Source of the DNA: Acidobacteriota bacterium
GTDB taxonomy: Bacteria > Acidobacteriota > UBA6911 > RPQK01 > CBDAPI01
Direction of reading: 5' to 3'
Length of the DNA stretch: 64,000 nucleotides
Assembly (NCBI GenBank): GCA_965197285.1
Contig: OZ240092.1
Span: forward strand, 3,947,337 to 4,011,336
Below the pieces are notes generated by a model, which saw only the letters and a list, made by a program, of their open reading frames with translations, did no database searches and was not told the DNA's origin. The first letter of the stretch is position 1; every line of letters starts with the position of its first letter. The translations under genes and the position numbers were made by a program. Of this stretch, positions 9,948 through 26,762 are shown piece after piece.

Positions 9948-9960
9948 GCTGATGTCGTCC

Positions 9961-9995
9961 GAATTAAGAATTAAGAATTAAAAATTAAAAATTGA
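9961..9995. repeat. AT-rich MITE-like repeat, site A (single copy, approx coords)
   Basis: GAATTAAGAATTAAGAATTAAAAATTAAAAATTGA in a 62% GC background; same motif at 18459, 18723, 26549, 26726. Confidence 0.6.
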
Positions 9996-10315
9996 AGGTT
10001 GAACGTTTCGTGAAGTGTTCAGTTTAACCGGCCGTGAACCCTTAACCTCTGGCGCGTGGTGCTCAAATCTCTGCCGCCCCTCCAGGGCTCCTGTGCTTTG
10101 CCGAGACTTCCGTGGGCTGACGCCCCCGGCTATTTTCTTGCGGCCGCTCCGCGGCCTGAAGAAAGCCCCCAAAGGGGGCGAAAGAGAATAGCCGGGGCCG
10201 CAAGGCCCCGGTAAAAGACGCATCATCCAAAGACAGCCCCCAAAGGGGGCGGCAGAAAAAAGCTGGATCGATTTTGGTTTGGGCAACACGCCTTTCAACT
10301 CGCTGAATAAAGCGG

Positions 10316-11983
10316 TTAGAGCCGTAGAAGCGAAAAAGCCCAGATGATGAGACCGGCCAGTAGACAGTAGCAACTCATGGGGATGATCGTCTTGCGAATC
10401 AGACTTCCCTCCCGGCCCATCAGCCCGACAGTGGCGGAGGCGGCAACCACGTTGTGAACGGTCACCATGTTACTAGCCGCCCCTCCCACCGCCTGTGCGG
10501 CCACGATCAATGTGGGCAGCACCTCGATTCTCTGAGCGGTGGAAAACTGAAAGAGCGAGAACATAAGGTTTGAAATCGTGTTACTTCCGGCAACAAACGC
10601 GCCCATTGCTCCGATCCAGGGAGCTACAAGGGGCCAGGCGCCACCCACAAGGGCTGCCGCCGTTTCGGCGAGTAGAAGAGGCATGCTTTCGAGTCCGGAG
10701 TTGTTGTAGGCCGCCCCGGACTGAATGAAAACACGCACCATGGGAACCGCGAAAATCAGTGCCACGGCCGCTCCCAGAAGCTGTGAACCAGCCAGCCGCC
10801 AGGACCCCAGGATCTGCGTGCGCGACATTCCGTGCAGCCCGTAGGTCAAGAAACAAGTGACCAGAAACATGAAGCCGGGGAGGTAAAAGGGCTGGACCGT
10901 CTGCCCGATGCCGGTTCCGAACAGGTCGCTGGGTCCGATCGAGACACCACTCAGCCACGCCCGAATACCCAGCCCGGGGATGCGAGTGATCAGGAGAAGA
11001 ATGGCCACAATCGCATAGGGCGACCAGGCTCGGAGAGTCGACATCGTCGCTGCCGGTGCCGCTGCTGCGGCTTCGCCCTCCAGTGTGCCGGACCAGTCAG
11101 CATCCCAGGTCTCCCGCGGCGGAAAGTCCCACAGCTTCTTCTTTGTAAACCAACCGCGGCGGATGACCGGAACTGCGACCAGCAGTCCCACCGCCCCCCC
11201 GATCAGAGAGGGAAACTCGGGGCCCAGCAACCTGGCACAAAGAAGATAGGGGACCACGAAGCAGCAGGCAGCAAACAGGGCAAACGGCCACATGTCAAGG
11301 CCGTCGCGAAAGCGGCGCGAAGGCCCGAAGAAGCGACTCAGCAGACCACAGAGAAAAAGTGGAACCTTCATTCCGCACAGGGAGTGCAGAATTGCCACTC
11401 GAAAGGTCACATCTTCTATCAACCCTGCGAAGGAGCCCTCCCCGGCCAACAGGTACTCCTCGACGATGGGAGCATCCAGACCTCCCGCCACTCCGACCAG
11501 AATCGGGGTCCCAACGGCGCCAAAGGAAACCGGCGTACTCTGAATGACCAGACCTACCATCACTGCGGCAGCCGCCGGGAAGCCGAGAGCCAGCAGCAGA
11601 GGAGCGGTGACGGCCGCCGGCGTCCCGAAGCCCGATGCACCTTCAATGAAACTTCCGAACAGCCAACCGACTACGATTGCCTGAATGCGGCGATCGCCGC
11701 TCAGGCCGGTCAGCGAAGCTCGAATCGTCCGGACGGCGCCGCTTCGGGTGATGGTGGACAGCAGAAGAAGAGCACCGAATACGATGTAGAGGAGCGCGAC
11801 GGCCAGAATCAGGCCCTGAATCGTGGCAGCCACCAGGACCTCCGGCCGGACCCTCCACACGGCAACTGCCGGTAACAGAGTGGCCAGATAGGCCAGCGGC
11901 ATAGCCCGCCGTGCCGGCAACCGCATCCAGACCAGGAGAATCGCGACTGCCAGGATCGGGGTAAGCGCAAGAAGACTCAGCAC
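10316..11983 (-). CDS. lctP: L-lactate/glycolate permease (LctP family)
   Basis: 12+ TM helices and the GFGTPAAV LctP signature. Confidence 0.8.
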
Positions 11984-12013
11984 TACTGCGTTGGGAGAAC
12001 GTGGAAGGAAGTA

Positions 12014-12232
12014 CTAGTTACTGCACATTCCGCGCTGCGGTGCGCCGCACGGACAGGCGCCGGCCTCAGGGACCGCTGTGCTGGAATCCTGACGAGCGAC
12101 TGCAAACGCGGAGATCAGCTTCAGCGTCCTGCTCCCCGTACAATCCGGACACTCGACCACATCCGGCTCCCGAAAAGCGATCTTCTCAAAGCGCGTGTCA
12201 CAGTCATCGCAGCGATACTCAAAAATGGGCAT
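12014..12232 (-). CDS. FmdB-family zinc-ribbon regulatory protein (72 aa; the upstream part of the listed ORF is spurious)
   Basis: MPIFEYRCDDCDTRFE...VECPDC...ACPCG paired CxxC ribbon. Confidence 0.7.
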   Translation of the reverse strand: MPIFEYRCDDCDTRFEKIAFREPDVVECPDCTGSRTLKLISAFAVARQDSSTAVPEAGACPCGAPQRGMCSN

Positions 12233-12283
12233 GGGCTCTATTGTAAACCAACAAAGCCAGCCCGTCCTGTTAAACAAGGAGAG

Positions 12284-13480
12284 ATGCGTATCGCTGCATG
12301 CCTCCTGGTATCGCTGGTCATGGTGTTGAGCGACTGTGGATGGGCGCCTCGAGAGACCCGGGCAGTGTGGGTGGTTCGGGATGCTCTGGTGAGTCCTGAA
12401 GCCGTGGCCCGGATGGTTGAGGATGCCGTGCAAGGCGGGTTCAACACTTTGCTCGTCCAGGTTCGGGGAAGGGGCGACGCTTACTACCGGTCCGATCTCG
12501 TGCCCAGAGCGGAGCAACTTGCCCGCCAACCATCCGATTTCGATCCCCTGCGATTGACCATAAAACTGGCCACAAAGCGAGGGCTGCGCGTGCATGCCTG
12601 GATCAACCTTCTACTGGTGTCGAGCCTTTCCCGGCTGCCCCGCTCAAAGGATCACGTCATCCGCCGCCACCCTGAGTGGCTGGTGCTCCCGGCCGATTTA
12701 GTCAACAAGGTCAACCATCTACCGCCGGATGATCCCAGGGGCCTGTCGCTGCGGGCTCGCTACTACAGGAACAACCGCAATGCGGACGGCCTCTTCCTCG
12801 ATCCGGCTCTGCCCGAGGTACAGGACCACCTTCTTGCGGTGATTCGCGAACTGCTGTCCAGCTACCGAATCGACGGACTCCACCTGGATTATGTCCGCTA
12901 CCCCGGGGCCGACCCCGGCTACAGTCTGAAGGCGCTGCAGGCTTTCCTCGAACGCAATCCTGAAGGCAGAGGGAGTCCGGCGCACCCGCATGGCGGCGGC
13001 TCTCTGGAGCTGGTTCGGGAGCATTCACCATTGTGGGATCAGTTTCGGCGCGATCAGGTCACCGGACTGGTCACTCGGATTCGACACGAGCTCGCGAAGA
13101 CATCCCCGACAATCCTGTTATCGGCTGCGGTCGTGGCGGACGCCGACCTCGCTTACGAATCCAGACTGCAGGACTGGAAACACTGGCTGGAAGCCGGAAT
13201 TCTGGACGTGGTCTGCCCGATGGCCTATACAGCTGAGCCGGAAGTCTTCGAAAGTCGCATCCGGATCGCCCGCCGATCCAGTTCCGGCTCCCGCCTGTGG
13301 GCCGGAATCGGCGCCTACAAGCTCGACGGGAAAGGGATCATCCAGCAGATCAGGCTGTCACGCCAACTGGGCGCCGACGGCTTCGTCGTCTTCTCCTACA
13401 ACACCCTGGCGGCCTCCGAAGAATCTCGGCACCAACTCCTGGAGCCAGTGGCTGAATTCCTGCAGTCACAGAGCCCCTGA
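12284..13480 (+). CDS. GHL10-family (glycoside hydrolase-like, YngK/DUF187) lipoprotein
   Basis: lipobox-like SDCG; VWVVRDAL...GFNTLLVQVRGRGDAYY...LHLDYVRYPG typical of GHL10. Confidence 0.6.
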   Translation: MRIAACLLVSLVMVLSDCGWAPRETRAVWVVRDALVSPEAVARMVEDAVQGGFNTLLVQVRGRGDAYYRSDLVPRAEQLARQPSDFDPLRLTIKLATKRGLRVHAWINLLLVSSLSRLPRSKDHVIRRHPEWLVLPADLVNKVNHLPPDDPRGLSLRARYYRNNRNADGLFLDPALPEVQDHLLAVIRELLSSYRIDGLHLDYVRYPGADPGYSLKALQAFLERNPEGRGSPAHPHGGGSLELVREHSPLWDQFRRDQVTGLVTRIRHELAKTSPTILLSAAVVADADLAYESRLQDWKHWLEAGILDVVCPMAYTAEPEVFESRIRIARRSSSGSRLWAGIGAYKLDGKGIIQQIRLSRQLGADGFVVFSYNTLAASEESRHQLLEPVAEFLQSQSP

Positions 13481-13506
13481 TTCCAGATTCCAAATCCCAG
13501 AAATGT

Positions 13507-13534
13507 GGGAGTCGCCCCGGGGCCCCGCCCACTC
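13507..13534. repeat. half-copy of the GC-rich palindromic element (B-type arm)
   Basis: GGGAGTCGCCCCGGGGCCCCGCCCACTC matches the right arm of the element at 57114-57183 in all but 2 positions; lies between convergent stops. Confidence 0.5.
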
Positions 13535-13541
13535 TGGGCAG

Positions 13542-14810
13542 TCAGTCCAGATGCCGGAGAACGTGTCCCCCATAGATCTGGCGGGGGCGGGCGATTCGGC
13601 GATCGGGGTCGTTCATGAACTCTTCCCACTGGGAGATCCAGCCGCTGGTTCTGGCAACGGCGAACAGCACCGGAAACATGGACGGGGGGAAGCCGATCGC
13701 TTTGTAAATGATCCCGGAATAGAAATCCACGTTGGGATAGAGCTTGCGACTGACGAAATAATCGTCCTTGAGGGCGATCTGCTCCAGGTGCTGTGCCAGG
13801 TCGAGCAACGGAGTGGGCTCAGCCACCTCGAAGACCTGATCTGCCAGCTTCTTGATGATCTTGGCTCGCGGATCGTAGTTCTTGTAAACCCGGTGGCCAA
13901 ATCCCATCAGCCTCATCTCGCCCTTCTTTACTCGCTCCACGTGCCCGTCTACGCGGTCAGGTGAGCCGATACTCTCGAGCATCCTCACGACCGCGGCATT
14001 GGCCCCTCCGTGAAGTGGCCCGGCCAGCGCACCGATCGACGCGGCGGCGGCCATGTAAGGGTCGGGCAAAGAACTGCCCACACTTCGCATGGCATTGGCG
14101 CTGCAGTTCTGTTCGTGGTCGGCGTGAAGCAGGAACAGCACATCCAGGGCCCGGGAGTAAACGGGACTCACCTCGGATCCGTCCCCCTGGTGGAAAACCG
14201 TCCTCAAGAAATCGGCGGCAAAGTCCGCTTCCGGATCGGGTTCTACGAACGGCAATCCCATGGTGTGGCGACAGGCGCAGGCGGCGATGCCGGGCATGTG
14301 ACCGAGGAGACGCAGCAGGTGAAGACGCCGCCCCTGGGCATCGTCCAGGTTGGAGGCTTCGGGATAGAGTCCTGAAAGAGCTGCCACGGCGCTCATCACC
14401 ATTGCCATCGGGGCAGCGTCCCGGGGAAAGCTGGAGATCAGCTTTTGGATCTCTGCCGGGATGCCGCCGTGAGAGCGGATCGTATGACTCCACTCCCGGT
14501 AGCTGTCCGGGTCGGGGAGATCCCCATGAAAAACGAGATAGGCGCCCTCCAGGAAGGAAACCCTTCCGGCAAGTTCTTCGATCGGGTATCCCCGATACCG
14601 CAGGATCCCTTTGTGGCCGTCTATATAAGTGATGGTACTTCGGCAGGAACCGGTGTTGGAGAAGCCCGGGTCGTAGGTGATCAGACCGAAATCCCCGTCG
14701 TCCACCTTGATTTGCCGAAGGTCGAGCGCCCGCACCGATCCATCTCTGATCTCGAGCTCGTATTCACGGCCGGTGCGGTTGTCTCTGACGGTTAGACTCG
14801 TGGTCTGCAT
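13542..14810 (-). CDS. gltA: citrate synthase
   Basis: GFGHRVYKNYDPRA, LHGGAN and NVDFYSG signatures. Confidence 0.9.
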   Translation of the reverse strand: MQTTSLTVRDNRTGREYELEIRDGSVRALDLRQIKVDDGDFGLITYDPGFSNTGSCRSTITYIDGHKGILRYRGYPIEELAGRVSFLEGAYLVFHGDLPDPDSYREWSHTIRSHGGIPAEIQKLISSFPRDAAPMAMVMSAVAALSGLYPEASNLDDAQGRRLHLLRLLGHMPGIAACACRHTMGLPFVEPDPEADFAADFLRTVFHQGDGSEVSPVYSRALDVLFLLHADHEQNCSANAMRSVGSSLPDPYMAAAASIGALAGPLHGGANAAVVRMLESIGSPDRVDGHVERVKKGEMRLMGFGHRVYKNYDPRAKIIKKLADQVFEVAEPTPLLDLAQHLEQIALKDDYFVSRKLYPNVDFYSGIIYKAIGFPPSMFPVLFAVARTSGWISQWEEFMNDPDRRIARPRQIYGGHVLRHLD

Positions 14811-14976
14811 CGATCCCTTTCGTTACTAATCTTCCAGCAACTGCAGTCTTGTCAAGAGCGGGGCGTTTGAAACCAGTTACGGACAGCGCAGAAAGCGCGG
14901 TCCCTCAAGCCTCTCGGAGCGCCATCTAGGATAGCTGAGTATTCCTGGAAACTCAATCGCGTGGTAGACTTTTTAC

Positions 14977-15579
14977 ATGTCTAAAGTGTTCCTGGCGCTG
15001 GCTTTCCTGGTTTTGCTGCCAGGGGCCACGGCGGGAACGAGTCTGCGCTTCAATTCTGTTCTCTATTCCTTTGTGATAGAGCAACCCGACGGATGGGTGG
15101 TGGAGGTCGAGAGCGTTTCTCAGATCGCTAACTTCGTGCTTCATCCAGCCGAGACACACTGGCGCAGCGCACCGGTCGTGATTTTCGGTCGCTTTGTGCC
15201 TAGGACGGCCGGCGAGACTCTCGCGGACTTCGTGAAGCAGGACGAAGAACGGTTTCGAGAGGGTTGTACCGGCGCCCGCGTAACAGATGTGGACTGGAAC
15301 GCTGATCTGGAGAGGACATTTCTGCTCAAGTCCCTTACCTGCGTCAATCGGCGCAAGGAGATCGTCGCCGTCACGGAAGTGCCGTCCTACTTTGGCGTCT
15401 TTATTCTATCGGGACAGCAGGCCCGGGCCGTGGACGAGGCGTCCGATTCCTTTCAGGTTTTGCTGGGCGGATTCGAGTGGATCGAGACGAAGAGGGAGTA
15501 CTGGCATCCCGGAGCCGAGGACCAACCCGACGCCGTTTCCGGGCCCCGCCGTGGCAGCGCCCCGCATCGTCACCGGTAA
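14977..15579 (+). CDS. secreted hypothetical protein
   Basis: signal peptide (ALAFLVLLPGATAG); no motif recognised. Confidence 0.4.
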   Translation: MSKVFLALAFLVLLPGATAGTSLRFNSVLYSFVIEQPDGWVVEVESVSQIANFVLHPAETHWRSAPVVIFGRFVPRTAGETLADFVKQDEERFREGCTGARVTDVDWNADLERTFLLKSLTCVNRRKEIVAVTEVPSYFGVFILSGQQARAVDEASDSFQVLLGGFEWIETKREYWHPGAEDQPDAVSGPRRGSAPHRHR

Positions 15580-15639
15580 CCGCTTCAAGCGGGGTTCTTT
15601 GACTAAACACAGTACTTCCCTGTATTCTTTTCCGCCTCA

Positions 15640-17001
15640 ATGCGAGTACTCATCCTGGGTGGCGGTGCTGTCTCGTACCTGGTCGCCCGCCGGCTGATTC
15701 GTGAGAAAAACGAAATCACGATCGTCGAGCGCGACGAGCAACGTTGCGAGGAGCTGGAGGGGCGGCTGGACGCAAGGATCGTCCAGGGTAACGCGGCCAG
15801 CATTGAGACTCTGGAACGAGCTGGCATTACGCGAGCCCAGATGATCATCGCCGCCACCGATAACGATCAGATCAACATCATCGGCACTCTGATCGCCCAA
15901 AACTATCAAAACATTCGGATCAAGGTCATGCGGCTGCGGACGCACGAAGCTATGCGGTGGCAAAAGCTGGCGGCTCACCGGAGTTTCCAGGTAGATCGCG
16001 TCATTCACCCCGACCGAGAAGCCGCAGACCGACTGCTGAGGGTTGTTTCGCTCCCGGGAGTATCCGACGTCCGAAGCTTCATGGACGGTCGAGTTCGGCT
16101 CTTCGGGATGAATGTCCGCGATGACAGCTGGCTGGTCGGAAAATCCATGCGCGAGCTCGAAGAGGCCTCACCCCCCGAGCACTCGTTGATCTGCATGATC
16201 TTTCGCGGCCATCGCGTCATCATTCCGAGGGCGGACGATCGACTCATGCCCGGCGACCACGTGTACGTCGTGGTTGCCAACGACCAGTTCGAGGAAGGGA
16301 TGGAGTTCATGGGTCTGTCCTCATCGGAGCGGGCTCAGCGAGTCTTCATCCTGGGAGGAAAACAGATCAGTATCGAACTGGCCCGGCGGCTGGAGAAGAC
16401 GGGGGTTCAGGTCAAGCTTTTTGAGCGGGATCGGCAGCGTTGCGAAAAAATCTCCACCCTGGTCAAACGCACGGTCGTGGTCCACGCGGATGGTACGGAT
16501 CAGAGAATTCTTGACGAAGAGAACATTGAAGGGATCGATGCCTACATGGCACTCACGACCCGGGACGAAGACAACATCATCGCCGCCCTGCTCTCCAAGC
16601 GCCTCGGCGCCAGGAAGGCGGTCGCCCTCGTGAACCGGCTCGATCTTCTGCCCATCGTCCCCCTGCTGGGCATCAATGCCAGTTTGAGCCTCCGCCTCGT
16701 CACGGTGGATCGAATCCTGCGGTTCGTACGCAAGGGCCGGGTCTTGTCCGTTCACACCTTCCGGCAGGAAGAGGCTGAGGCCATCGAGCTCATCGCAACC
16801 GAAGGTTCTCCTTATGTGAACAGGCAGCTGCGCAAGGTGCACCTGCCGCACACCGCGATCATCGGCGCTATCGGACGCCGAGACGGTGAGATCGTGGTAC
16901 CGCGGGGAGACGCGGTCATCAAGCCCGGCGACCGGGTCATTTTCTTTTGTCTGGAACAGGTCGTGCAGGAACTGGAGGCGGCATTCATTGCTGAGGATTG
17001 A
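15640..17001 (+). CDS. trkA: Trk potassium uptake system NAD-binding subunit
   Basis: two GxGxxG Rossmann (ILGGGAVS / ILGGKQIS) plus two TrkA-C domains. Confidence 0.9.
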   Translation: MRVLILGGGAVSYLVARRLIREKNEITIVERDEQRCEELEGRLDARIVQGNAASIETLERAGITRAQMIIAATDNDQINIIGTLIAQNYQNIRIKVMRLRTHEAMRWQKLAAHRSFQVDRVIHPDREAADRLLRVVSLPGVSDVRSFMDGRVRLFGMNVRDDSWLVGKSMRELEEASPPEHSLICMIFRGHRVIIPRADDRLMPGDHVYVVVANDQFEEGMEFMGLSSSERAQRVFILGGKQISIELARRLEKTGVQVKLFERDRQRCEKISTLVKRTVVVHADGTDQRILDEENIEGIDAYMALTTRDEDNIIAALLSKRLGARKAVALVNRLDLLPIVPLLGINASLSLRLVTVDRILRFVRKGRVLSVHTFRQEEAEAIELIATEGSPYVNRQLRKVHLPHTAIIGAIGRRDGEIVVPRGDAVIKPGDRVIFFCLEQVVQELEAAFIAED

Positions 17002-18458
17002 TGTCGATCGTTCGCTGGGCGAAACTCCTGGAAGTTCTTGGATACTTCAGCCTGGCCATCGCAACCGCGATGATTCTTCCCCTGCTTCTGGCCCTCTACT
17101 GGCGAGACGGTGGTCTGGCACCCCTGCTGGTAGCCATAGGCCTCTCGGGCGCCATCGGGGCCGTGCTGATTGCCGTCTGCCGGGGCCCTTCGATCGAGTT
17201 CAACCATCGAGAGGCCATCGTGATGGTCGTCCTCACGTGGCTCGCCGCGATCTCCCTGGGCGCACTCCCCTATTACTTTTCTGAGTTCTTCCCGAGTTTC
17301 ACGGACAGCTTCTTTGAGTCGGCGTCCGGCTTCACCACCACCGGCGCAACGATACTGGACGACATCGAGTCGGTCGCCGGCAGTCTGCTCTTCTGGCGAG
17401 CTCTTACCCACTGGCTTGGGGGAATGGGGATCATCCTGCTGGGTATCGCCATTCTGCCTCTGATCGGAACCGGAGGGATGGAACTTTACCGAGCCGAGTT
17501 TTCCGGCTCCAGCTCTGAGAAATTGAAACCCCGAATCGCCGAGACCGCCGCCTCACTGTGGGGAATCTACTTCACTCTGACCCTTGCCTGCTTCCTTCTA
17601 CTGATGGCCGCCGGTATGGGGCCGTTCGAGGCCATCTGTCACGCTTTTTCCACCATGGCCACCGGCGGTTTCTCGACCCGCAACCAAAGCATCGGGTCTT
17701 TCCACAGCGCCTTCGTGGAATCCGTCATCATCCTGTTCATGTTTCTGGCTGGTGTCAACTTTGCACTGCACTACCGTCTCCTCATGGAGCGGCGCGTGGG
17801 GCGCTTTCTACGAGATCGGGAGCTCCGCGCCTACGTGTGTGTGATCGTCACGGCTACGGCCGCGGTCTTGATCTCACTGAGCCTGGTTCTGGGCACCCCC
17901 TTTGCCACGGCTCTTCGAGTGGGTCTGTTTCAAGTGGTTTCCATCCTCACGGGGACCGGCTTATCCTCGGCCGATTTTGCTCAGTGGACTCCGTTCGCTC
18001 AGCTTGTCCTGCTCGCCCTCATGTTCTTCGGAGGTTGCACGGGTTCCACATCGGGCGGTCTGAAGATCGCCAGAATGGACATGCTCCTGCAGGTGATTCG
18101 ACGAGAGTTCAAGAGGATGGTCGAGCGACGAGGCGTCTTTGCCATCTACATGGGCCGGGAAGTGGTTCCGGAATCGACCATCCAGAGTCTCCTGAACCTG
18201 GTTTATCTGGCCTTCTTGATCAACTTCGGAGCGTGCATGCTCCTGACCGCTTTCGGGACGGATGTCTTCACCGCGATGTCAGCCGTCGCCGCCTCCATGT
18301 TCAACATCGGCCCCGGACTGGGAGCCGTGGGGCCCAGCGAGAACTACGCCGCCTTCCCCGCCCCCGTCAAATGGACCCTGACTCTATGCATGATCGCCGG
18401 TCGGCTGGAGTTCTATGCCTTTCTAGTCGTGCTTTCGCGGGCTTTTTGGAGGAAATGA
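16998..18458 (+). CDS. trkH: Trk/Ktr potassium transporter membrane subunit
   Basis: 4-bp overlap with trkA stop; multiple TM with TGF/GGxTGSTSGG-type pore loops. Confidence 0.9.
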   Translation: MMSIVRWAKLLEVLGYFSLAIATAMILPLLLALYWRDGGLAPLLVAIGLSGAIGAVLIAVCRGPSIEFNHREAIVMVVLTWLAAISLGALPYYFSEFFPSFTDSFFESASGFTTTGATILDDIESVAGSLLFWRALTHWLGGMGIILLGIAILPLIGTGGMELYRAEFSGSSSEKLKPRIAETAASLWGIYFTLTLACFLLLMAAGMGPFEAICHAFSTMATGGFSTRNQSIGSFHSAFVESVIILFMFLAGVNFALHYRLLMERRVGRFLRDRELRAYVCVIVTATAAVLISLSLVLGTPFATALRVGLFQVVSILTGTGLSSADFAQWTPFAQLVLLALMFFGGCTGSTSGGLKIARMDMLLQVIRREFKRMVERRGVFAIYMGREVVPESTIQSLLNLVYLAFLINFGACMLLTAFGTDVFTAMSAVAASMFNIGPGLGAVGPSENYAAFPAPVKWTLTLCMIAGRLEFYAFLVVLSRAFWRK

Positions 18459-18497
18459 ATTCCAAATTAAAGATTAAAAATTGAAAATTGAAAATCT
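18459..18497. repeat. AT-rich MITE-like repeat, site B left arm (approx)
   Basis: AATTCCAAATTAAAGATTAAAAATTGAAAATTGAAAATC; inverted partner at 18723-18768. Confidence 0.6.
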
Positions 18498-18512
18498 CTA
18501 GGTTGAGAATCA

Positions 18513-18719
18513 CTACGCCTGTCCCTGAGCCTTCTTGCTATCCTCGGGTATTGGCTTCTTCAGGTATTTTGACAAACCTGAGAGTTGCTTGCTGATGATG
18601 AGCAGATCCGATTGCAACCGTGCACACACTTCTGGGGACACAAGACCCAGTCGGCCGGCCAGCAGTAGCTGCGTTCTCAACTCGCCGCTCTCCCCCTCCA
18701 AAGTGCGAACTTGAGTCAA
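18513..18719 (-). pseudogene. C-terminal half of a four-helix-bundle protein (23S rRNA intervening-sequence protein family), N-terminus missing
   Basis: GESGELRTQLLLAGRLGLVSPEVCARLQSDLLIISKQLSGLSKYLKK matches the conserved C-terminal helices (...ELETQLLLA..LG...) of the family; only 68 aa, enclosed by AT-rich inverted repeats. Confidence 0.55.
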
Positions 18720-18722
18720 CCG

Positions 18723-18768
18723 AGTCTTTAATTTTCAATTTTTAATCTTTTATTTTTTATTTTTAATC
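18723..18768. repeat. AT-rich MITE-like repeat, site B right arm (inverted; approx)
   Basis: reverse complement GATTAAAAATAAAAAATAAAAGATTAAAAATTGAAAATTAAAG. Confidence 0.6.
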
Positions 18769-19908
18769 AACCCCCACCGCCCGATCCAGATCTTCGATGA
18801 GATCCGCCGTGGCCTCCAGGCCCACCGAAAGCCGTACCAAAGTATCCGAAATCCCCACAGCGGCGAGCTCCTCGGGGGAGAGGCCGGCGTGGGAAGAGAC
18901 GGCGGGGCGTATGACCAGGGTCTCGGCTCCGCCCAGGCTGGGAGCCACAATGGGGATGGAAAGACGATCGAAAAAGCGGTCGACTCGTTCCAGATCACCC
19001 TTGATCTCAAAGCTGAGCATGCCTCCAAAAGCCGTGAAAAGCGACCTGGCGGTGGCATGTCCCGGGCTCTGCTCCAGCCCAGGGTAATTCACGCGATCGA
19101 CCGCGTCATGGTCGGCCAGAAAGCGAGCAATTCGAAGCGCCGACTCATTCTGGTGTCTGACCCGCAGCGGCAGCGTCGTGATTCCCCGGTCGAGCAGGAA
19201 ACAGGCGTTGGGGTCGAGCGTGGCTCCAAGATGGTTCAGTCTGGAGGTGATCCTGGCGACCAACTCGCGGCTACCCACAAAGACGCCGGCTATGATGTCG
19301 CTGTGACCGTTCAGGTACTTGGTTGCACTGTGCAGGACCAGGTCGAAGCCGATTTCGATCGGCCTGAAGTTCACCGGCGTCGCGAAGGTGTTGTCGATCA
19401 GCGACACCAGGTTGCGTTCTCGAGCGAAGGCAATCACTTCCCGCAGCCTCGGAACGTCCATGAGAGGGTTGGTGATCGACTCCACGTAGATCGCCCGGGT
19501 ATTCTCCTTGACCTTCCTCTGCCAGCTCTCGGGATCGTCACCCGCAATCCAATCGTGCGCGATTCCAAGTCGTCCCAGCTCGCGGCCCACAAAATGGTGA
19601 GTCCCTCCATAGAGTCCGCTCTGGGCCAACAGGTGCGTTCCCGGCTGCAGGACCGTCAGCAGAGACGTCGTAATCGCCGCCATACCGCTGGCCGTGACCA
19701 TGGCCGCCTCTCCCCCTTCCAGGTCGGCCAGCTTGGCCGACACAGCCCGATGGTTGGGAGTGTTGTTCAGACGGGCGTAAAGGACGTCGTCATAGTTCAC
19801 CTCCCCACCGTATTCAAACGTGGAGGATTGAAAGATCGGCAGGCTGACAGCCCGGCCGATTCCCGGTCTGGGTTGCCCGGAGTGGACGGCTTTCGTTTCA
19901 AGTCTCAC
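18763..19908 (-). CDS. Cys/Met-metabolism PLP-dependent enzyme (cystathionine gamma-synthase/beta- or gamma-lyase family)
   Basis: SATKYLNGHSD PLP-lysine motif; 381 aa. Confidence 0.85.
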   Translation of the reverse strand: MRLETKAVHSGQPRPGIGRAVSLPIFQSSTFEYGGEVNYDDVLYARLNNTPNHRAVSAKLADLEGGEAAMVTASGMAAITTSLLTVLQPGTHLLAQSGLYGGTHHFVGRELGRLGIAHDWIAGDDPESWQRKVKENTRAIYVESITNPLMDVPRLREVIAFARERNLVSLIDNTFATPVNFRPIEIGFDLVLHSATKYLNGHSDIIAGVFVGSRELVARITSRLNHLGATLDPNACFLLDRGITTLPLRVRHQNESALRIARFLADHDAVDRVNYPGLEQSPGHATARSLFTAFGGMLSFEIKGDLERVDRFFDRLSIPIVAPSLGGAETLVIRPAVSSHAGLSPEELAAVGISDTLVRLSVGLEATADLIEDLDRAVGVD

Positions 19909-20100
19909 TATGACGTTTCCTTTCCCTGGTAGTTTCTTATGTCAACAGAATACACGCCCGGTGGCCAACTCTAGCTGTTACAGCCTGTGCAAGCAGGCCG
20001 GGGCGCAATTGCAGGAAAAGCTCAAAACGCGCTAAACTATTACTATTATGCCACTTGGCCGCATCCTACAGGGGCGTGGCGGAGGCCGAGGGAGGGTACG

Positions 20101-21132
20101 TTGAAGGTCTGGTTGATCAGGGCTCTCTTCGTGGTCATTCTGACCACCGTGACCTCATTCATGCGGCCGTTCGGGTTCTCACTGCAGGGTGCCGTGGCTC
20201 TGGGCCTGTGTCTCTCGGCGATCGTTGTCCTGGCTGAGTTGAGCATTCTCCACACTTCCTCCAGGACTCTTGTCGGCGCTGCCCTGGGTTCGCTACTCGG
20301 AATCGTGGGTGCCAGCTTGATGAGCCTGATCATCGATAAGATGTTTTTCCTTTCTGTTCCGACGACGACTTTTCTTCAGATCCTGGTTCTGGCAACGATG
20401 ACTTACATCGGCTTCGCCCTGGGGATCAGCAGGGGCGACCTCGTCCTCAACCTGGGAGGACTGGTTAAAGAACGGGGCGGACCCAGGCTGTCGACCAAGA
20501 TCCTGGATACCAGTGTGGTGATCGACGGCCGCGTGGCCGACATCATCGAGACGGGCTTTCTGGGCGGCTGGATCGTAGTTCCCGAGTTCGTCTTGAGGGA
20601 ACTGCAGCAGGTGGCCGACTCCTCTGATTCGATCAAGAGAAATCGGGGCCGAAGAGGCCTCGACATTCTGCGCAGAATCCAGAAAAAGGGCGAGGCCAAC
20701 GTGCAGATCCTGAACCAGGACTACCCGGAGCTGGACGAGGTGGATCTGAAATTGATTCAGCTGGCCAAGGATCTCGATGGCAAGATCGTCACCAACGATT
20801 TCAACCTCAACAAGGTGGCTCAGCTACATGGCGTGGCCGTGCTCAACATCAACGAGCTGGCCAATTCGCTGAAGCCCGTGGTGCTCCCGGGCGAGAGCAT
20901 GAGCGTGTTTATCCTCAAGGAAGGAAAGGAATACAACCAGGGCGTTGCGTACCTGGACGACGGGACGATGGTGGTCGTGGACAATGCTCGCCGCATGATC
21001 GGCAGGAACATTGAAATGCAGGTGACCAGCGTCCTGCAGACGACTGCCGGGAAGATGATTTTCGGGCGCGCACAGGCGGATTCGACCGACTCGGAAGGTG
21101 ATTATACGCGCGAGAGGGTTTCCAGGCTTTGA
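20101..21132 (+). CDS. PIN/TRAM-domain membrane protein (YacL-like); start set at TTG 20101 after a GGAGGG RBS, the ORF-track start 19987 is probably too early
   Basis: N-terminal TM helices, central PIN-like domain and C-terminal TRAM; sits immediately upstream of ispD-ispF as yacL does in Bacillus. Confidence 0.7.
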   Translation: MKVWLIRALFVVILTTVTSFMRPFGFSLQGAVALGLCLSAIVVLAELSILHTSSRTLVGAALGSLLGIVGASLMSLIIDKMFFLSVPTTTFLQILVLATMTYIGFALGISRGDLVLNLGGLVKERGGPRLSTKILDTSVVIDGRVADIIETGFLGGWIVVPEFVLRELQQVADSSDSIKRNRGRRGLDILRRIQKKGEANVQILNQDYPELDEVDLKLIQLAKDLDGKIVTNDFNLNKVAQLHGVAVLNINELANSLKPVVLPGESMSVFILKEGKEYNQGVAYLDDGTMVVVDNARRMIGRNIEMQVTSVLQTTAGKMIFGRAQADSTDSEGDYTRERVSRL

Positions 21133-21785
21133 CCGGACTCATTCTGGCTTCCGCCGGCTCGGGGGCGCGTTTCGAGTCCGCTGTTCCCAAACAATTCCTG
21201 CAATTCCAGGGAAAGCCGATTTATCTGTTTGCGCTGGAGACTATTGGTGAACTCTGCGAGGAGATCGTCGTTGTAGTTCCCCGGGACTGGCTGGGCCGGG
21301 TACGGAAAGAGTGCCTGGCGCTGGATCTGCGGGAACGAGTCAAGGTGGTCACCGGGGGGCTGTCGCGGCAGGAATCGGTGTCTCTAGGGCTCGAAGCGTT
21401 AACGCCGGGTATCACCAGGGTCCTTGTCCACGACGCAGTACGCCCCCTGGTTACCCGCGCGCTGGTCGGCAGAGTTCTCAAGGGTCTGGAACACGGGGCA
21501 GCCTGCGTGCCAGTCTTGCCGATTGCCGAGACGGTCAAAGAGGTCGACGGCCATCGAGTCCTCCGGACACTCAACCGCAGGCGACTGCGACTGGCGCAGA
21601 CGCCGCAGGCGTTTTACCGCAATGTTCTGAAAATTGCGCTGTTGGAGGCACAGGAAGACGGAATTTCGGCGACCGATGAGGCGACCCTGGTGGAACGGGC
21701 TGGAGAGAGCGTCTACACCGTCGAGGGAGAGCACGAGAACGTCAAGATCACCTGGAAGCACGACATGAAGCGGCTGGAGTACTAA
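21129..21785 (+). CDS. ispD: 2-C-methyl-D-erythritol 4-phosphate cytidylyltransferase
   Basis: TTG start overlapping the upstream stop (TTGA); LILASAGSGARF...VLVHDAVRPLV IspD motifs. Confidence 0.9.
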   Translation: MTGLILASAGSGARFESAVPKQFLQFQGKPIYLFALETIGELCEEIVVVVPRDWLGRVRKECLALDLRERVKVVTGGLSRQESVSLGLEALTPGITRVLVHDAVRPLVTRALVGRVLKGLEHGAACVPVLPIAETVKEVDGHRVLRTLNRRRLRLAQTPQAFYRNVLKIALLEAQEDGISATDEATLVERAGESVYTVEGEHENVKITWKHDMKRLEY

Positions 21786-21799
21786 GCTGGAGTACTAAG

Positions 21800-22285
21800 A
21801 TGGATTTTCGAGTGGGCACGGGCTTCGACTTCCACCGCTTTTGCCGGGACCGGCCTCTGGTGCTGGGTGGAGTCGCCATCCCCTTCCAGCTGGGCCTGGA
21901 TGGGCACTCCGACGCGGACGTGATCCTGCATGCGCTCAGCGACGCTATCCTGGGAGCTGCGGGACTGCCCGACATCGGATCACATTTCCCCGACAACGAC
22001 CCCGAGTACAAGGATCTCTCCAGCGTCGTTCTCCTGGAAAGAGTCTACCGCCTGGTGCAGATCCGCGGCCTGCGGGTGAGCAATCTCGACATCACGCTCA
22101 TAGCGGAAGAGCCCCGCCTGAATCCCCACATCGGGTCCATAAAAGCCAATCTGGCCCGCCTGCTCGATCTCGACCGCTCCAGGATCGGGGTGAAAGCGAC
22201 CACCATGGAAAAGTCAGGGCCAATCGGTCGATCCGAAGGTGTTGCAGCCCAGGCTGTTGTTCTTCTCGTACAGGGGCGGGATTAG
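21800..22285 (+). CDS. ispF: 2-C-methyl-D-erythritol 2,4-cyclodiphosphate synthase
   Basis: RVGTGFDFHRF...GHSDADV...HALSDAILGA IspF signature. Confidence 0.9.
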   Translation: MDFRVGTGFDFHRFCRDRPLVLGGVAIPFQLGLDGHSDADVILHALSDAILGAAGLPDIGSHFPDNDPEYKDLSSVVLLERVYRLVQIRGLRVSNLDITLIAEEPRLNPHIGSIKANLARLLDLDRSRIGVKATTMEKSGPIGRSEGVAAQAVVLLVQGRD

Positions 22286-22308
22286 TCTAAGTCTAGGGGT
22301 AAAGAGCT

Positions 22309-23112
22309 ATGGCCAATGAGTTCCTCGAGTTTGCTTGTGAGCTGGCGCAAGAAGCAGGGAGCCTCCTGACGGATTACCTGGGTCGGGAACTGGTCATCTC
22401 CAAGAAGGGCAGTATCAATCTTGTCACGGAAGCCGATCTGAAGTCTGAAGAACTGCTCGTGTCGAAGCTGTTGGAGCGCTTTCCCAACCATTCGATCCTG
22501 GCCGAAGAATCAGGGGCCAGCCAGCCCGGGGAGAAGGCATCCGGATTCCGCTGGATCATCGATCCCCTGGATGGGACGACCAACTTCGCGCACCGGTATC
22601 CTTTTTTCTGTGTATCCATCGCGCTGGAGATCGATGATCGCCTGGAGGTAGGAGTCGTGTACGACCCGACTGCCCGAGAGCTCTTTACGGCAGCGCGCGG
22701 CCAGGGCGCCCGGCTCAACGGCCGTTCCATACAAGTTTCTTCCGAGACCTCTTTAGGAGAGAGTCTGGTAGCTACCGGCTTTGCCTACGACCTCGACCAG
22801 ATCCAGAAGAACCTGAGACTGTTCCATGAATTCATGCTGAAGAGCCGAGCCGTAAGGAGAGACGGGTCGGCTGCTCTGGACCTCTGCTATGTTGCAGTAG
22901 GCCGCTTCGAGGGATTCTGGGAACTCAGCCTCAATCCCTGGGACGTGGCGGCGGGCGCCTTGATCGTGGCTGAGGCCGGAGGCCGGGTCAGCCGGTTCGA
23001 CGGCTCACCGGCACAGCTGGAGATTCCCGAGATCGTCGCCACCAACGGACGGATCCACCGGCAGATGCTCTCCATTATTCAGGATGGCCTCGACCTACCC
23101 GACGTCACGTAG
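22309..23112 (+). CDS. suhB: inositol monophosphatase family protein (SuhB-like)
   Basis: WIIDPLDGTTNF and WDVAAG IMPase motifs. Confidence 0.85.
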   Translation: MANEFLEFACELAQEAGSLLTDYLGRELVISKKGSINLVTEADLKSEELLVSKLLERFPNHSILAEESGASQPGEKASGFRWIIDPLDGTTNFAHRYPFFCVSIALEIDDRLEVGVVYDPTARELFTAARGQGARLNGRSIQVSSETSLGESLVATGFAYDLDQIQKNLRLFHEFMLKSRAVRRDGSAALDLCYVAVGRFEGFWELSLNPWDVAAGALIVAEAGGRVSRFDGSPAQLEIPEIVATNGRIHRQMLSIIQDGLDLPDVT

Positions 23113-23140
23113 GGGCCGGTCTTGTGCCGACCCGTTGGGC

Positions 23141-23160
23141 GGGCGACCACCAGGGTCGCC
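23141..23160. terminator. GC hairpin between convergent genes (candidate bidirectional terminator, no U-tract)
   Basis: GGGCGACC-ACCA-GGTCGCCC perfect 8-bp stem 29 bp after the suhB stop and 27 bp from the radical-SAM stop. Confidence 0.4.
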
Positions 23161-23186
23161 CCTACAACCTTTAACAAGCCAGCCCG

Positions 23187-24632
23187 TTAGGTCCGATACA
23201 TAGGCGTGAAGGTGTAGGTCTGGTCTCGCCAGGAGAGCATTTTTAGCTTGTGGAAAGAGGCTCTCAGCACTTCCCGGTTACGAATGGATTCCCGGATCAG
23301 ATCCCAGACGATCGAGGGTCGGCCGTAAAAGCGAAGGTAGGCCTTGCGCTGCAGCTTCATCAGCTCCGGGCCGGTGATGTGCCGGCGTTCAAACGCAACC
23401 TGGTCACTGGTCAGAGTATCCCATTCGATCTCCTCCAGAGTGAGCAAACCTTCCTTCACGAGCTCGTCAAAGATGGCCGTCCCGGGGATGGGAATGACGA
23501 CGTTGAAGTTGGCCCGCACGAGCGGCAGTTCACGAGCCAGTCGAATCGTCTGATTGATCTCTTCGGCCGTCTCGTCCAGCAGTCCGATCATGAAGTAGCC
23601 GGTGATGCGGATGCTGCTGCAATCAGCAATCATCTGAGCGCGCTCGCGGATGGTCTCGACCGTGACACGCTTCTTGATCAGACCTTGAATGCGCTCGCTG
23701 CCGGACTCGATGCCGACTGCCATGGCCTCACATCCCGCCGCTTCCATCACTGCCAGTAACTCGGGGTTCAGGGAATCGAGCCGAACTCCTACGGGGCAGT
23801 CCCATTTCAGATTCAGTCCCGAGTCGATCAGACCTTCGCTGAAGGCAATCGCGTATTTGTTGGCCAGAGTGAACTCATCGTCGATGATGCTGAAGCGCTG
23901 AATTGAGTAACGCTGCTTGAGAAAGCGAAGCTCCTCGATCACATGGCCGACGCTGCGGTGGCGAAGCTTGCGTCCGGACAGCCCCGGCGTGTTGCAATAG
24001 GTACAGGGATAGGGACACCCGCGGGTGGTCAGAACCGGATAGTACTGCTCCCAGATAAAGCTCGGATAGGTGTCCGGCTTCACGAGATCCCAGGCCGGAA
24101 TTCCGTAAGCATCCAGATCGGTCCCGAAGCCTGCCGGGTTGGTGACCACCCGTTGCTCTGCGGCGCTTCGCCAGACCAGCCCCGGAACGCGGGCCAGCTC
24201 GGCTTCCGGAATCCCGAAACCATATTCGCGAAACAGCTCCAGAAACGCTCCCATTCCCTCCTCTGCCTCCGCCTGCCAGGCGAAATCGAGGTTGGGCAGG
24301 GCTGTGAGAACAAACTCGGGAAGAGAGGACGGGTGAGGCCCCCCGGCGAGTGTCAAAATGGCGGGATCAATCGACTTGACGATGTCCAGATGGTGATTGA
24401 CATAGTTGTAATCGCGGCTGTAGCAGCGGAATCCGACCACGTCGAATTCGCCTTCCCGGACGAAGGTCCCGAACTCGCGAAACGTCATCTCTTCTTTGGG
24501 GCAGTCCAACAGCGTGATGTCAAAGCCCTGGTTGCGCAGGACGGTTCCCAGATAGAGAATGCCGCAGTCGGGAGTGACCTGAAAATTGTTCCCCTCCCGG
24601 ACGGGGAGAACCAGAAGCACTTTGAGAGACAT
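23187..24632 (-). CDS. B12-binding-domain radical SAM enzyme (class B)
   Basis: N-terminal cobalamin-binding fold and CPYPCTYC (CxxxCxxC) radical-SAM cluster motif. Confidence 0.85.
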   Translation of the reverse strand: MSLKVLLVLPVREGNNFQVTPDCGILYLGTVLRNQGFDITLLDCPKEEMTFREFGTFVREGEFDVVGFRCYSRDYNYVNHHLDIVKSIDPAILTLAGGPHPSSLPEFVLTALPNLDFAWQAEAEEGMGAFLELFREYGFGIPEAELARVPGLVWRSAAEQRVVTNPAGFGTDLDAYGIPAWDLVKPDTYPSFIWEQYYPVLTTRGCPYPCTYCNTPGLSGRKLRHRSVGHVIEELRFLKQRYSIQRFSIIDDEFTLANKYAIAFSEGLIDSGLNLKWDCPVGVRLDSLNPELLAVMEAAGCEAMAVGIESGSERIQGLIKKRVTVETIRERAQMIADCSSIRITGYFMIGLLDETAEEINQTIRLARELPLVRANFNVVIPIPGTAIFDELVKEGLLTLEEIEWDTLTSDQVAFERRHITGPELMKLQRKAYLRFYGRPSIVWDLIRESIRNREVLRASFHKLKMLSWRDQTYTFTPMYRT

Positions 24633-24768
24633 GTTGCGCTGCTACTTTACTGGAAAGGCCGGCTCAAAGTCTATAAAGTAGATCGTCTCTAGAGAATGAA
24701 CCGGCTCAGTTCGACAGCCGTTAACCGGTTGAATTGAAACGAGTTCCACAGCGCTTACTGACTCACTG

Positions 24769-26541
24769 GTGAGAAACCCCGAGGCCTCGCATCGTCGCTG
24801 GCTCTCCCGACTGGCGCTCATATTGCTGGTTCTGGTCACCAGTTTGCCTTTCCTCAACCAGGCCTACCACATCGATGACCGAATCTACCTGGACGTTGCC
24901 CGGACTATTTTCAACCAGCCGCTGTACCCTTACGACTTTGACGCTCTCTATGAGGGTTTTGTCGCCCCCGATGCCGCCAGTCACAGTCACCTTCCATTCA
25001 CCTCGTACTACCTGGCTCTAACCCAGATCGCAACCGGCCGGGACAGCGAACGAATTGCCCATCTGGCCTTCCTGGTGTTCCCTTTACTGGCCGTTCTTGC
25101 CTTCTACGAACTGGCCGCCAACCTGCTGCGTTTTCCTTTTGCGGCAGCAGCCCTGCTGGTCTCATCGACCGCCTTCCTCACCTTGAGCCATACCATCATG
25201 CCGGACGTTCCGCTGCTGTCCTTCTGGATCCTGGCGCTGGCGTCCTTTCATCATTTCCTGCGAAATCCTGCCGGCACGTGGGCCTGGAGAATCTGCCTGG
25301 GAGCCGTCCTGATGGCAGGCTTCATCTCACTCTTGACGGTCGCTCTGGTGGCGCTGCTGGGAGCCGACTGGATCCTGTTCCGGCGCTCTGCCACGTGGAA
25401 GGATGAGCCAAAGCTTCGCATCGCACTGCTTCTGGCGGCCCCTTTTCTGCTGTGGTTGCTCTGGTATCTTCGAGCTTATCTGCACTATGACCGGTTTGTC
25501 CTGGTAAATACCTTTCTGCACCTGGAACAGCGGTCCCCCTTTTCCCTGGCAGCCGTCGGCTCGAAACTACTCAGCTTCCTGCTCCATGTGGGCGGGACGT
25601 TTGTCTTCCCCGTGGCCGGCTGGCTGGCCTTCACGGGCCGCTCTTCCCGGCGAATGTATGTGGCCGTCTTCTTCCTTGCGTTCATCCCCGCTTATGCGTG
25701 GTATCCGGAGTGGCTCTGGCTGCAGGCCTTTCTCTTCGCAGCCTTTTCGACTACCGCCCTGCTGGCGATCGTCAAAATCGGCGAGGGAGCCGTCCGGCTG
25801 TGGGGGAGCTTCCGGTCCCACAGGTCCCCTCCCGACAGGGTATTCTGGCGGGATCCGGAGCCTGGTCTCACCGCCGAGTCGAGAGCCTTGCTGGGAGTCC
25901 TCTTCCTGTGGTTCTGGGGGGTTCTGGCGGCCTGCTCCCTGGTTTTCTACAGTGGATCGGTTCGCTACGCCGTTCTGGCCCTTCCGGCGTTCCTGCTCCT
26001 GTGGCAGTACGCCCTGGAGACCGCCCACAGTAGCCGCCGAGTCAAGTCCGCACTTCTCTTGAGTCTGGGCTTGACGCTACCGTATTCGCTGGCGATTGCT
26101 TCTGCGGACTACCGCTTTGCCGATGTCTATCGCGAGGAGTCGGCCCGGATTATCGGGGACCTCGGAAACCGCAACAATCAAATCTGGTACGCGGGGGAGT
26201 GGGGTTTTCGGTACTACATGGAAAAGCTGGGTGCGCGGCCGCTGACGAAAACCGGTGTACAACCCGTGGCCGGCGACATTATTGTCAAACCGTACATCGC
26301 CCTTCCCTGGATTACGCTCTACGACGATAACGAGTTCGTCCGCCTTCTGGAGCAGCGCCACGTGGACCCGGAATCCAGTTTCCGGATTCTCGACTTCCAC
26401 ACGGCCGCCGGTTTCTACAGCACCGCCTGGGGTATCCTCCCCATCAGTCTCGCCCAGGGACAAAAGTGGGAGTGGTTCAATATCTATCAGGTCAAGAAGA
26501 AGTACGACGGGCCTGTCCCCGAGATCGACAGACCGTGGTGA
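24769..26541 (+). CDS. GT-C-fold membrane glycosyltransferase (ArnT/PMT, GT39/GT83-like)
   Basis: about 12 TM helices; N-terminal loop NQAYHIDDRIYLDVART with the DD/DxD-like acidic pair typical of ArnT/PMT. Confidence 0.6.
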   Translation: MRNPEASHRRWLSRLALILLVLVTSLPFLNQAYHIDDRIYLDVARTIFNQPLYPYDFDALYEGFVAPDAASHSHLPFTSYYLALTQIATGRDSERIAHLAFLVFPLLAVLAFYELAANLLRFPFAAAALLVSSTAFLTLSHTIMPDVPLLSFWILALASFHHFLRNPAGTWAWRICLGAVLMAGFISLLTVALVALLGADWILFRRSATWKDEPKLRIALLLAAPFLLWLLWYLRAYLHYDRFVLVNTFLHLEQRSPFSLAAVGSKLLSFLLHVGGTFVFPVAGWLAFTGRSSRRMYVAVFFLAFIPAYAWYPEWLWLQAFLFAAFSTTALLAIVKIGEGAVRLWGSFRSHRSPPDRVFWRDPEPGLTAESRALLGVLFLWFWGVLAACSLVFYSGSVRYAVLALPAFLLLWQYALETAHSSRRVKSALLLSLGLTLPYSLAIASADYRFADVYREESARIIGDLGNRNNQIWYAGEWGFRYYMEKLGARPLTKTGVQPVAGDIIVKPYIALPWITLYDDNEFVRLLEQRHVDPESSFRILDFHTAAGFYSTAWGILPISLAQGQKWEWFNIYQVKKKYDGPVPEIDRPW

Positions 26542-26548
26542 AGGGCTA

Positions 26549-26583
26549 GGAAATTGAATTAAAAATTAAAAATTGAAAATTAT
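26549..26583. repeat. AT-rich MITE-like repeat, site C left arm (approx)
   Basis: GAAATTGAATTAAAAATTAAAAATTGAAAATTATC. Confidence 0.6.
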
Positions 26584-26725
26584 CGCTTCGCTCATTGCGA
26601 CTGCTTGGACGCAGCAATACTTGCCTTTAACACATCCATGGCGAATTCGATACAGACTGAGCCGCCGACCGTTTGAAGTTGAAGGTTGACCGTCGAAAGG
26701 TTAGGGTGGTCACCAGGTCTTAAGA

Positions 26726-26754
26726 TCTTTAATTTGCAATTTTTAATTTTTAAT
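26726..26754. repeat. AT-rich MITE-like repeat, site C right arm (inverted; approx)
   Basis: reverse complement GATTAAAAATTAAAAATTGCAAATTAAAG. Confidence 0.6.
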
Positions 26755-26762
26755 CAGGTTGT

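Follow-up and report, generated by a model that had tools for sequence, protein, structure and literature searches.

The role of the open reading frame (ORF) carried by intervening sequences (IVSs) of 23S rRNA and the purpose of heptanucleotide arrays such as the STRR and TAACTGA repeats have both been puzzles for about 30 years. In the Coxiella IVS, GACAGAT heptamers in variable number are found upstream of the S23p ORF, inside a 28-bp terminal stem; RNase III cleaves at the first of them, the S23p ORF is in decay, and the authors rate the RNA above the protein (PMC4990558). TAACTGA heptamer repeats are known from Beggiatoaceae, Microcystis, and Bacteroidetes (MacGregor 2015, PMC4679880). Heptamer arrays of Nostoc were reported to influence expression via an unidentified partner. 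The analysis described here touches both puzzles. It concerns a 64-kb stretch of the GC-rich genome of an Acidobacteriota bacterium (contig OZ240092.1, positions 3,947,337 to 4,011,336; this whole stretch is called the window), in which AT-rich islands at three intergenic sites, A, B, and C, consist of tandem heptamers, and site B encloses the remnant of a gene for a four-helix-bundle (4HB) protein, the family of the 23S IVS proteins. On balance, and with little more than even confidence, we consider these elements to be decayed 4HB cassettes of the 23S IVS type, of which the repeat hairpin is the persisting part.

RESULTS

Tandem heptamer arrays and a 4HB gene remnant in the window

The initial annotation had described an AT-rich motif with an "18-25-nt core" in five copies at the three intergenic sites. 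The repeat itself is real. When up to 3 mismatches were allowed, the motif ATTAAAAATTRAAAATTG gave 14 overlapping matches, every one of them within sites A, B, or C, compared to 0.01 expected from shuffled sequences, and the GC fraction at the arrays was 0.42 to 0.47 compared to ~0.6 elsewhere in the window. However, the core is not a unique sequence. Tandem Repeats Finder (TRF), run on the 64-kb window, resolved it into a tandem array of the heptamer unit AATTRAR in 3.7 to 5.9 copies. In all, TRF called period 7 for six arrays at four intergenic sites, which agrees with the STRR-like pattern of at least 3 copies, intergenic placement, and several sites. The fourth site, overlooked in the initial annotation, is a solo array of GATTCCA in 3.3 copies (ATTCCAG type) at 13479-13501; it begins within the TGA stop codon of a GHL10-family gene (12284-13480, plus strand) and is flanked by convergent genes. 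Likewise, the second motif of the initial annotation, GAAGGTTGAMCG, is present but is not a separate motif; it is a run (pair) of degenerate GGTTGAA units of the same kind, and whole arrays of this unit occur in relatives. The AT-rich islands are of the class to which the cyanobacterial STRR repeats and the repeats at the ends of the Coxiella 23S rRNA IVS also belong, and their AT richness belongs to the unit variant of this genome, not to the array class.

Sites B and C each consist of two arrays that are inverted and face inward, as the initial annotation had proposed. Site B occupies exactly the gap between the convergent stop codons of trkH and of a cystathionine gamma-synthase-like (CGS) gene (18763-19908, minus strand). 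Its first arm (18464-18497; TRF 18464-18495, 4.6 copies) adjoins the trkH stop codon and is made of the units ATTCCAA, ATTAAAG, ATTAAAA, ATTGAAA, and ATTGAAA, whereas the inverted arm B′ (18723-18768; TRF 18727-18767, 5.9 copies) starts at the stop codon (TGA) of the CGS gene. Two co-directional genes flank site C. One arm (26557-26583; TRF 26557-26582, 3.7 copies) is found 15 nt past the stop codon of a PMT_2/GT39-like gene (24769-26541, plus strand), and the inverted arm C′ (26728-26754; 3.9 copies by TRF) ends 11 nt ahead of the ATG (26766) of a TerB-like gene. The 144-bp cargo between them (26584-26727) has no recognizable coding content and includes degenerate GTTGAAG/GTTGACC units at ~26677-26700. 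Site A (9961-10007; TRF 9961-9993, 4.7 copies) is a solo array with the co-directional genes lctP and tag on either side. On the minus strand its units read, in order, TTCAACC, TTCAATT, TTTAATT (twice), and CTTAATT (twice), and the array ends 14 nt upstream of the tag ATG (9947, minus strand).

In minimum-free-energy folds of either strand, the arms of B and of C pair with each other and form stems of 25 to 40 bp. Complementary termini that give a stem of at least 20 bp, as in 23S rRNA IVSs, are thus present at both sites and on both strands. The other mark of such IVSs, insertion in a helix of 23S rRNA, was not seen; there is no rRNA anywhere in the window, and the elements adjoin stop or start codons of protein-coding genes. 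An Rfam scan gave no matches at site B or C. No reverse transcriptase was found at sites A to C, where the surrounding ORFs are tag, lctP, trkH, CGS, PMT_2-like, and TerB-like.

The cargo of site B holds a 68-aa ORF with a TTG start (18513-18719, minus strand), which the initial annotation had taken for the C-terminal part of a 4HB (23S IVS) protein. This identification held up. The ORF matched TIGR02436 at E = 3.5e-5 with 24 bits, exactly the cutoff (profile positions 62 to 109 of 109), and PF05635 at E = 1.8e-3 with 18.9 bits, below the cutoff of 33.8 (profile positions 66 to 106 of 106). Against our own 4HB hidden Markov model (HMM), built from 30 full-length family members, it was the sole match (E = 1.7e-4) among the 2064 six-frame segments of the window, and this HMM detected no intact 4HB gene in the 64 kb. 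Instead of a full four-helix domain of ~106 to 120 residues with a score over the Pfam gathering threshold, the ORF keeps helices 3 and 4 alone, or ~45% of the protein at its C terminus; the ~60 N-terminal residues are absent, and the break falls directly beside arm B′. Since arm B′ starts 3 nt upstream of the ORF, the N-terminal half has been deleted, and the ORF is a pseudogene fragment. No close relatives of it were found by a homologue search among 5.8 billion proteins, and a sequence search of the PDB gave no match.

Inverted arrays around intact 4HB genes in more than 10 phyla

A consensus-like 4HB probe retrieved thousands of PF05635 proteins, and by way of an alignment of 30 we arrived at 80 full-length loci. 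These span Bacteroidota, Acidobacteriota, Planctomycetota, Chloroflexota, Clostridia, Patescibacteria, Elusimicrobiota, Nitrospirota, Desulfobacterota, Fibrobacterota, and Alphaproteobacteria, more than 10 phyla in all. Nearly all of the 80 4HB genes are bracketed by inverted tandem arrays. The best flank-to-flank inverted repeat had a median score of 33.5, compared to 17 in 400 control placements (95th percentile of controls, 23), and scores of 40 or higher were found at 26 of the 80 loci compared to 2 of the 400 controls. With a strict detector, array density within 300 bp of the 4HB gene was ~10 times that farther out. Of the 80 loci, 64 had 7 as the best arm period and 13 had 8; examples of period-8 arms are those of L022, L030, L060, L075, and L080, with sequences such as GGATTCAA and AGGTATCA. 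The heptamer units are locus specific (38 distinct units in 40 loci), with a median of 3.9 copies.

Some trends were apparent. First, both neighbors were co-directional with the 4HB gene in 60 of the 80 loci, with gaps of ~70 bp. Second, cassettes recur at certain junctions, namely sdhA|sdhB, leuC|leuD, upstream of hemB, and two junctions of a beta-oxidation gene cluster, and the 4HB proteins inside these recurrent-junction groups are 43 to 80% identical. Intact cassettes at sdhA|sdhB were seen in four Bacteroidota and one member of the Blastocatellia (Acidobacteriota), the five loci being L003, L033, L047, L054, and L076; junctions of this type are either conserved or repeatedly hit across phyla. 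Third, arms resemble their own partner, with which they have 12 6-mers in common; with the arms of orthologous cassettes they share 6, roughly the chance level (p = 1.6e-7). Finally, variation within arrays is concentrated in two of the seven positions (0.86 compared to 0.66 expected; p = 7e-6). In many phyla, the usual surroundings of IVS-protein genes thus appear to be inverted heptamer arrays at an operon junction, an association that appears undescribed and can be tested. We found no paper that reports it beyond the single case of the Coxiella IVS, and none in which heptamer arrays are linked with 4HB genes other than those in rRNA.

Most 4HB protein clusters in a metagenome collection had a longest contig of ~0.6 to 3 kb, mostly ~1 kb, which is consistent with repeat flanks breaking short-read assemblies. 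A metagenome scan with the array pattern itself gave, among the matches listed, which were mostly AT-rich noise, no 4HB gene within 700 bp in any of 120 loci. One unrelated contig with 63% GC (L097, ~2700-2830) carries an inverted pair without cargo, in which TCTCCAA/TTTTCAA units face four copies of ATTGAAA ~35 nt away. Mid- to high-GC contigs (L115, L117, L131, L148, and L155) carry solo AATTRAA arrays directly past stop codons or ahead of start codons.

Array positions, units, and cargo in close relatives

Seven syntenic loci (L202 to L208) were collected from homologues of the CGS protein at 97 to 75% identity and, together with the window, make eight genomes. Inverted heptamer arrays or an array remnant were found at site B in seven of the eight, with units of the ATTCCAG, ATTRAAA, or CGTTYCN type. 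What lies between the arms differs from one genome to the next. The ATTRAAA arrays of the window hold the 4HB remnant; inverted ATTCCAG arrays flank an insertion sequence (IS) element in L202 (97% CGS identity) and a complete group II intron in L205 (82%); and in L203 (86%) the left side keeps a remnant of ATTCCAG units and the right side has units of the window type, together with an IS21 element and the 3′ end of a group II intron. AATTAAA arrays are present on both sides in L207 (86%), a hairpin of CGTTYCN arrays without cargo fills an 88-bp gap in L208 (83%), and two ATTCCAG-like units are left in L206 (75%). The exception is L204 (85%), in which the site is empty and 3 bp separate the stop codons.

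At site C of L207, an intact 136-aa PF05635 gene lies within inverted ACGTTTC/ACGTTCC arrays at the PMT_2|TerB junction. At this site L202 retains an ACGTTTC array and L204 a solo ATTCCAG/ACCCAGA array, and no arrays were found in L205 or L208. A frameshifted 4HB remnant in the window's own C cargo (the peptide RSAAQSVSN) was considered and rejected: our HMM gave no match, and the alignment to the intact L207 gene had p = 0.22. At site A, L207 has ~2 units followed by a conserved leader, TCGGACGACAnCAnC-ATG, and L204 has five copies of ACYCGGA. The array at 13479-13501 has an ortholog in L202 (18162-18184), and the same gap holds GGTTCTA-type arrays in L203 and L204. Arrays of the GGTTGAA unit are found as 12 copies of AACCTTC in L203 and as an inverted GTTGAAA/CTTCAAC pair in L204. 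In total the relatives have 2 to 6 arrays per 21 kb, and one genome holds several unit types. The HMM detected no 4HB remnant in L202 to L205 and no intact 4HB gene in ~106 kb of L001 and L202 to L205, where arrays are frequent. The comparison of orthologous sites means that array positions are old, that units and copy numbers turn over, and that cargo is interchangeable; in this lineage, heptamer arrays hold fixed gene-boundary positions.

The initial annotation had assigned the elements to a family like the miniature inverted-repeat transposable elements (MITEs), that is, nonautonomous transposons whose terminal inverted repeats, here the arrays, would be mobilized in trans. Such a family would fit one AT-rich unit type common to three sites within 17 kb, the empty site B of L204, and the metagenome 4HB clusters confined mostly to ~1-kb contigs, as repeat-flanked DNA would be. 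It would also fit a 20-nt block, CGCTTCGCTCATTGCG, at the inner edge of the window's C cargo, which is found again at the inner edge of the site-B array of L202 (p = 0.002) and is a residual hint of cargo mobility. However, comparison of the empty L204 site (TGA-AAA-TCA) with the window (TGA-array...array-TCA) revealed no duplicated bases and hence no target-site duplication. The interiors of A, B, and C share nothing but the arrays, the sole sign of a conserved interior being the block shared with L202; the arm ends are fuzzy, with variable copy number and no defined terminal inverted repeats; and no transposase is linked. In addition, the same intergenic positions in relatives carry other units (ATTCCAG, CGTTYCN, and ACYCGGA), are empty, or have other cargo, and orthologous cassettes keep the same operon junction across families. 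The window-type site-B unit is also present in L203 and L207, at 86% identity, which means that it is old and that there was no recent burst. In view of the missing duplication, the unrelated interiors, the variable arm ends, the age of the arrays, and the lack of a linked transposase, we rejected a MITE-like origin, which we regard as very unlikely.

The convergent CGS/trkH gap is a hot spot for insertions (L202, 11140-13063; L203, 11143-14816; L205, 11146-13151). The element in L202 is of the DDE_Tnp_1 type, and the intron in L205 is complete with its reverse transcriptase. All of these IS elements and introns lie inside inverted heptamer arms, as though the array hairpin were the target. 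Group II introns often target terminator hairpins, and their presence inside the site-B arms of L203 and L205 could mean that the inverted arrays are transcription terminators, bidirectional in the case of trkH/CGS. The location of site B exactly between two convergent stop codons and the U-rich tract into which its plus-strand 3′ arm leads would agree with this. However, scans for terminators, like those for sigma-70 promoters, found nothing convincing at the window arrays, and the stems are long and AU-rich, unlike those of intrinsic terminators. Most 4HB cassettes, moreover, have co-directional operon genes on both sides, and a stop to transcription there would do harm. A terminator function is therefore hardly probable.

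Other repeats were seen in the window and its relatives. Two Acido-Lenti-1 RNA motifs are arranged head to head near site A, at 10110-10157 (plus strand, 39.0 bits) and 10164-10211 (minus strand, 35.9 bits; gathering score, 37), with duplicated GCCCCCTTTGGGGGC hairpins close to them; taken by itself, this match makes Acidobacteriota the probable lineage. The pair lies within ~300 bp of the lctP-tag gap that L204 and L207 lack, their gaps being 69 and 42 bp, respectively, and these ~300 bp have the look of an inserted repeat element and not of a single small-RNA gene. A period-34 tandem repeat at 38690-38774 (2.5 copies; consensus, CGCCTAAAGTGGACCCCTCAACAAAAAACCCTT) is unrelated to the heptamer arrays. 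Intergenic gaps of the relatives (L203, 11170-11330, and the PMT_2|TerB gaps of L205 and L208) repeatedly contain a different, GC-rich repeat, GGACCCTCCGTGGTCCGATCAGATCGC, which is probably a REP-like family.

DISCUSSION

If the window elements are decayed cassettes, sites B and C would each preserve, as two inverted arrays, the arms of a cassette type that normally carries a 4HB IVS protein gene, and the cargo would have decayed to half a gene at B and to 144 unrecognizable bp at C, with A left as a solo array. Read-through transcription from the flanking genes would then allow the arms to pair as a 25- to 40-bp duplex. RNase III may cut this duplex, as it does in rRNA IVSs, or the duplex may serve as a 3′-end or insulating hairpin, which would separate the messages of the neighboring genes. 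What persists would be the hairpin and not the protein, and repeat slippage could produce both the shifts in copy number and the rapid, concerted change of units in the two arms. The assignment of the hairpin as an RNase III or 3′-end RNA structure is drawn from the Coxiella IVS. Of the three options considered in the initial annotation, MITEs, processed IVS-like hairpins, and regulatory RNA structures, the second is thus the closest; the layout fits, and the processing itself would follow by analogy.

Several points weigh against this reading. First, no 4HB homology was detected by our HMM in the C cargo, and its derivation from a 4HB gene cannot be demonstrated. Second, the window elements fold with modest z-scores (−2.2 to −4.3), and RNase III processing is ascribed to this organism by analogy alone. 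Third, arm mismatches on the sense strand showed no excess of G·U (93) over A·C (113; p = 0.19), and the mirrored order of variant units between arms was not significant (p = 0.058), so selection on the RNA stem at the level of base pairs is not demonstrated. Finally, a stem alone does not explain the 7-nt periodicity or the "5+2" pattern of conserved and variable positions, and variation limited to two of seven positions looks more like a repeated recognition motif than a stem.

The lack of significance in both tests of stem selection, together with the free change of copy number and unit between close relatives, would also suit functionless, microsatellite-like products of slippage, the inverted pairs being accidents or by-products of insertion. 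This is highly improbable, however. Array positions persist over 75 to 97% CGS identity while the sequence turns over, periods 7 and 8 dominate all others, and the variation is position specific, none of which is expected of such products. Nor are the strong enrichment of inverted arms around 4HB genes and the coevolution of the arms of a cassette.

The position-specific variation leads to another possibility, in which the arrays are repeated binding sites, on single-stranded RNA or DNA, for a trans-acting factor that may be the 4HB protein itself as a pentamer. Binding would regulate translation or transcription of adjacent genes, and the inverted layout around 4HB genes would be autoregulatory. 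Besides the restriction of changes to ~2 of 7 positions, the size of the arrays, ~4 to 6 units, is suggestive, since the PDB relatives 2GSC and 2RLD each contain five chains of one sequence. The location of the arrays also argues for it: solo arrays end 9 to 14 nt before start codons, and the TAACTGA arrays of Beggiatoaceae often end 1 nt ahead of them. However, orthologous cassettes have unrelated units although their 4HB proteins are 43 to 80% identical, and a single genome has several units, both of which make base-specific recognition by one protein unlikely. The 4HB proteins are only mildly basic (median pI, 8.65), and the HMM found no intact 4HB gene in the 64-kb window or in the ~106 kb of related DNA in spite of the many arrays there. 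We therefore consider binding sites of this kind unlikely.

A broader proposal combines these elements, and we would give it a small but real chance. The 4HB IVS proteins and the STRR-type heptamer arrays could be two halves of one widespread system, in which a ring-shaped 4HB oligomer would bind RNA or single-stranded DNA at about five phased 7-nt units. The gene would travel, or be maintained, inside a hairpin of its own binding arrays, at operon junctions as well as in rRNA. The solo arrays found where genes start or end would be either its regulon or traces of cassettes since lost. If true, this would provide a function for both orphan features, and it would explain why array hairpins are places where 4HB genes, IS elements, and group II introns land.

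To return to the decayed cassettes, the window elements themselves are ordinary wrecks, and their value lies in the rule to which they point. With that rule, both of the old puzzles can be approached experimentally in culturable Bacteroidota, among them a Flavobacterium with its cassette ahead of hemB and a Mucilaginibacter with one at sdhA|sdhB. The rule also draws attention to a class of repeats that breaks metagenome assemblies.

Four kinds of known elements can be compared with those of the window. MITEs and the REP/BIME repeats are likewise short, intergenic, and inverted, with potential hairpins. However, the window elements have no target-site duplication, conserved interior, defined termini, or linked transposase or RAYT, and their units differ between orthologous sites. 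Avd of the diversity-generating retroelements (PF22296/PF05635) is a homologous small four-helix-bundle protein, and the full-length 4HB relatives gave weak matches to the bAvd model. The window elements differ from it in that they have no adjacent reverse transcriptase, template repeat, or variable repeat. The STRR repeats of heterocystous cyanobacteria and the TAACTGA repeats are also tandem 7-nt units in 2 to 6 or more copies, are nearly always intergenic, and often end just ahead of a start codon, whereas their units and lineages are different; inverted pairing around a 4HB gene is unreported in the papers on these repeats, including PMC4679880. The last comparison is with the 23S rRNA IVSs that carry an S23p/4HB ORF, such as those of Leptospira and Coxiella burnetii. 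The window elements lie between protein-coding genes and not in helix 45 or 25 of 23S rRNA, their unit sequence is different, and their ORF is truncated (site B) or gone (sites C and A). On the other hand, the protein family is the same and so is the terminal inverted-repeat stem of ~25 to 30 bp, and, as in the Coxiella IVS, the arms contain tandem heptamers of variable copy number and the ORF decays while the RNA element persists (PMC4990558).

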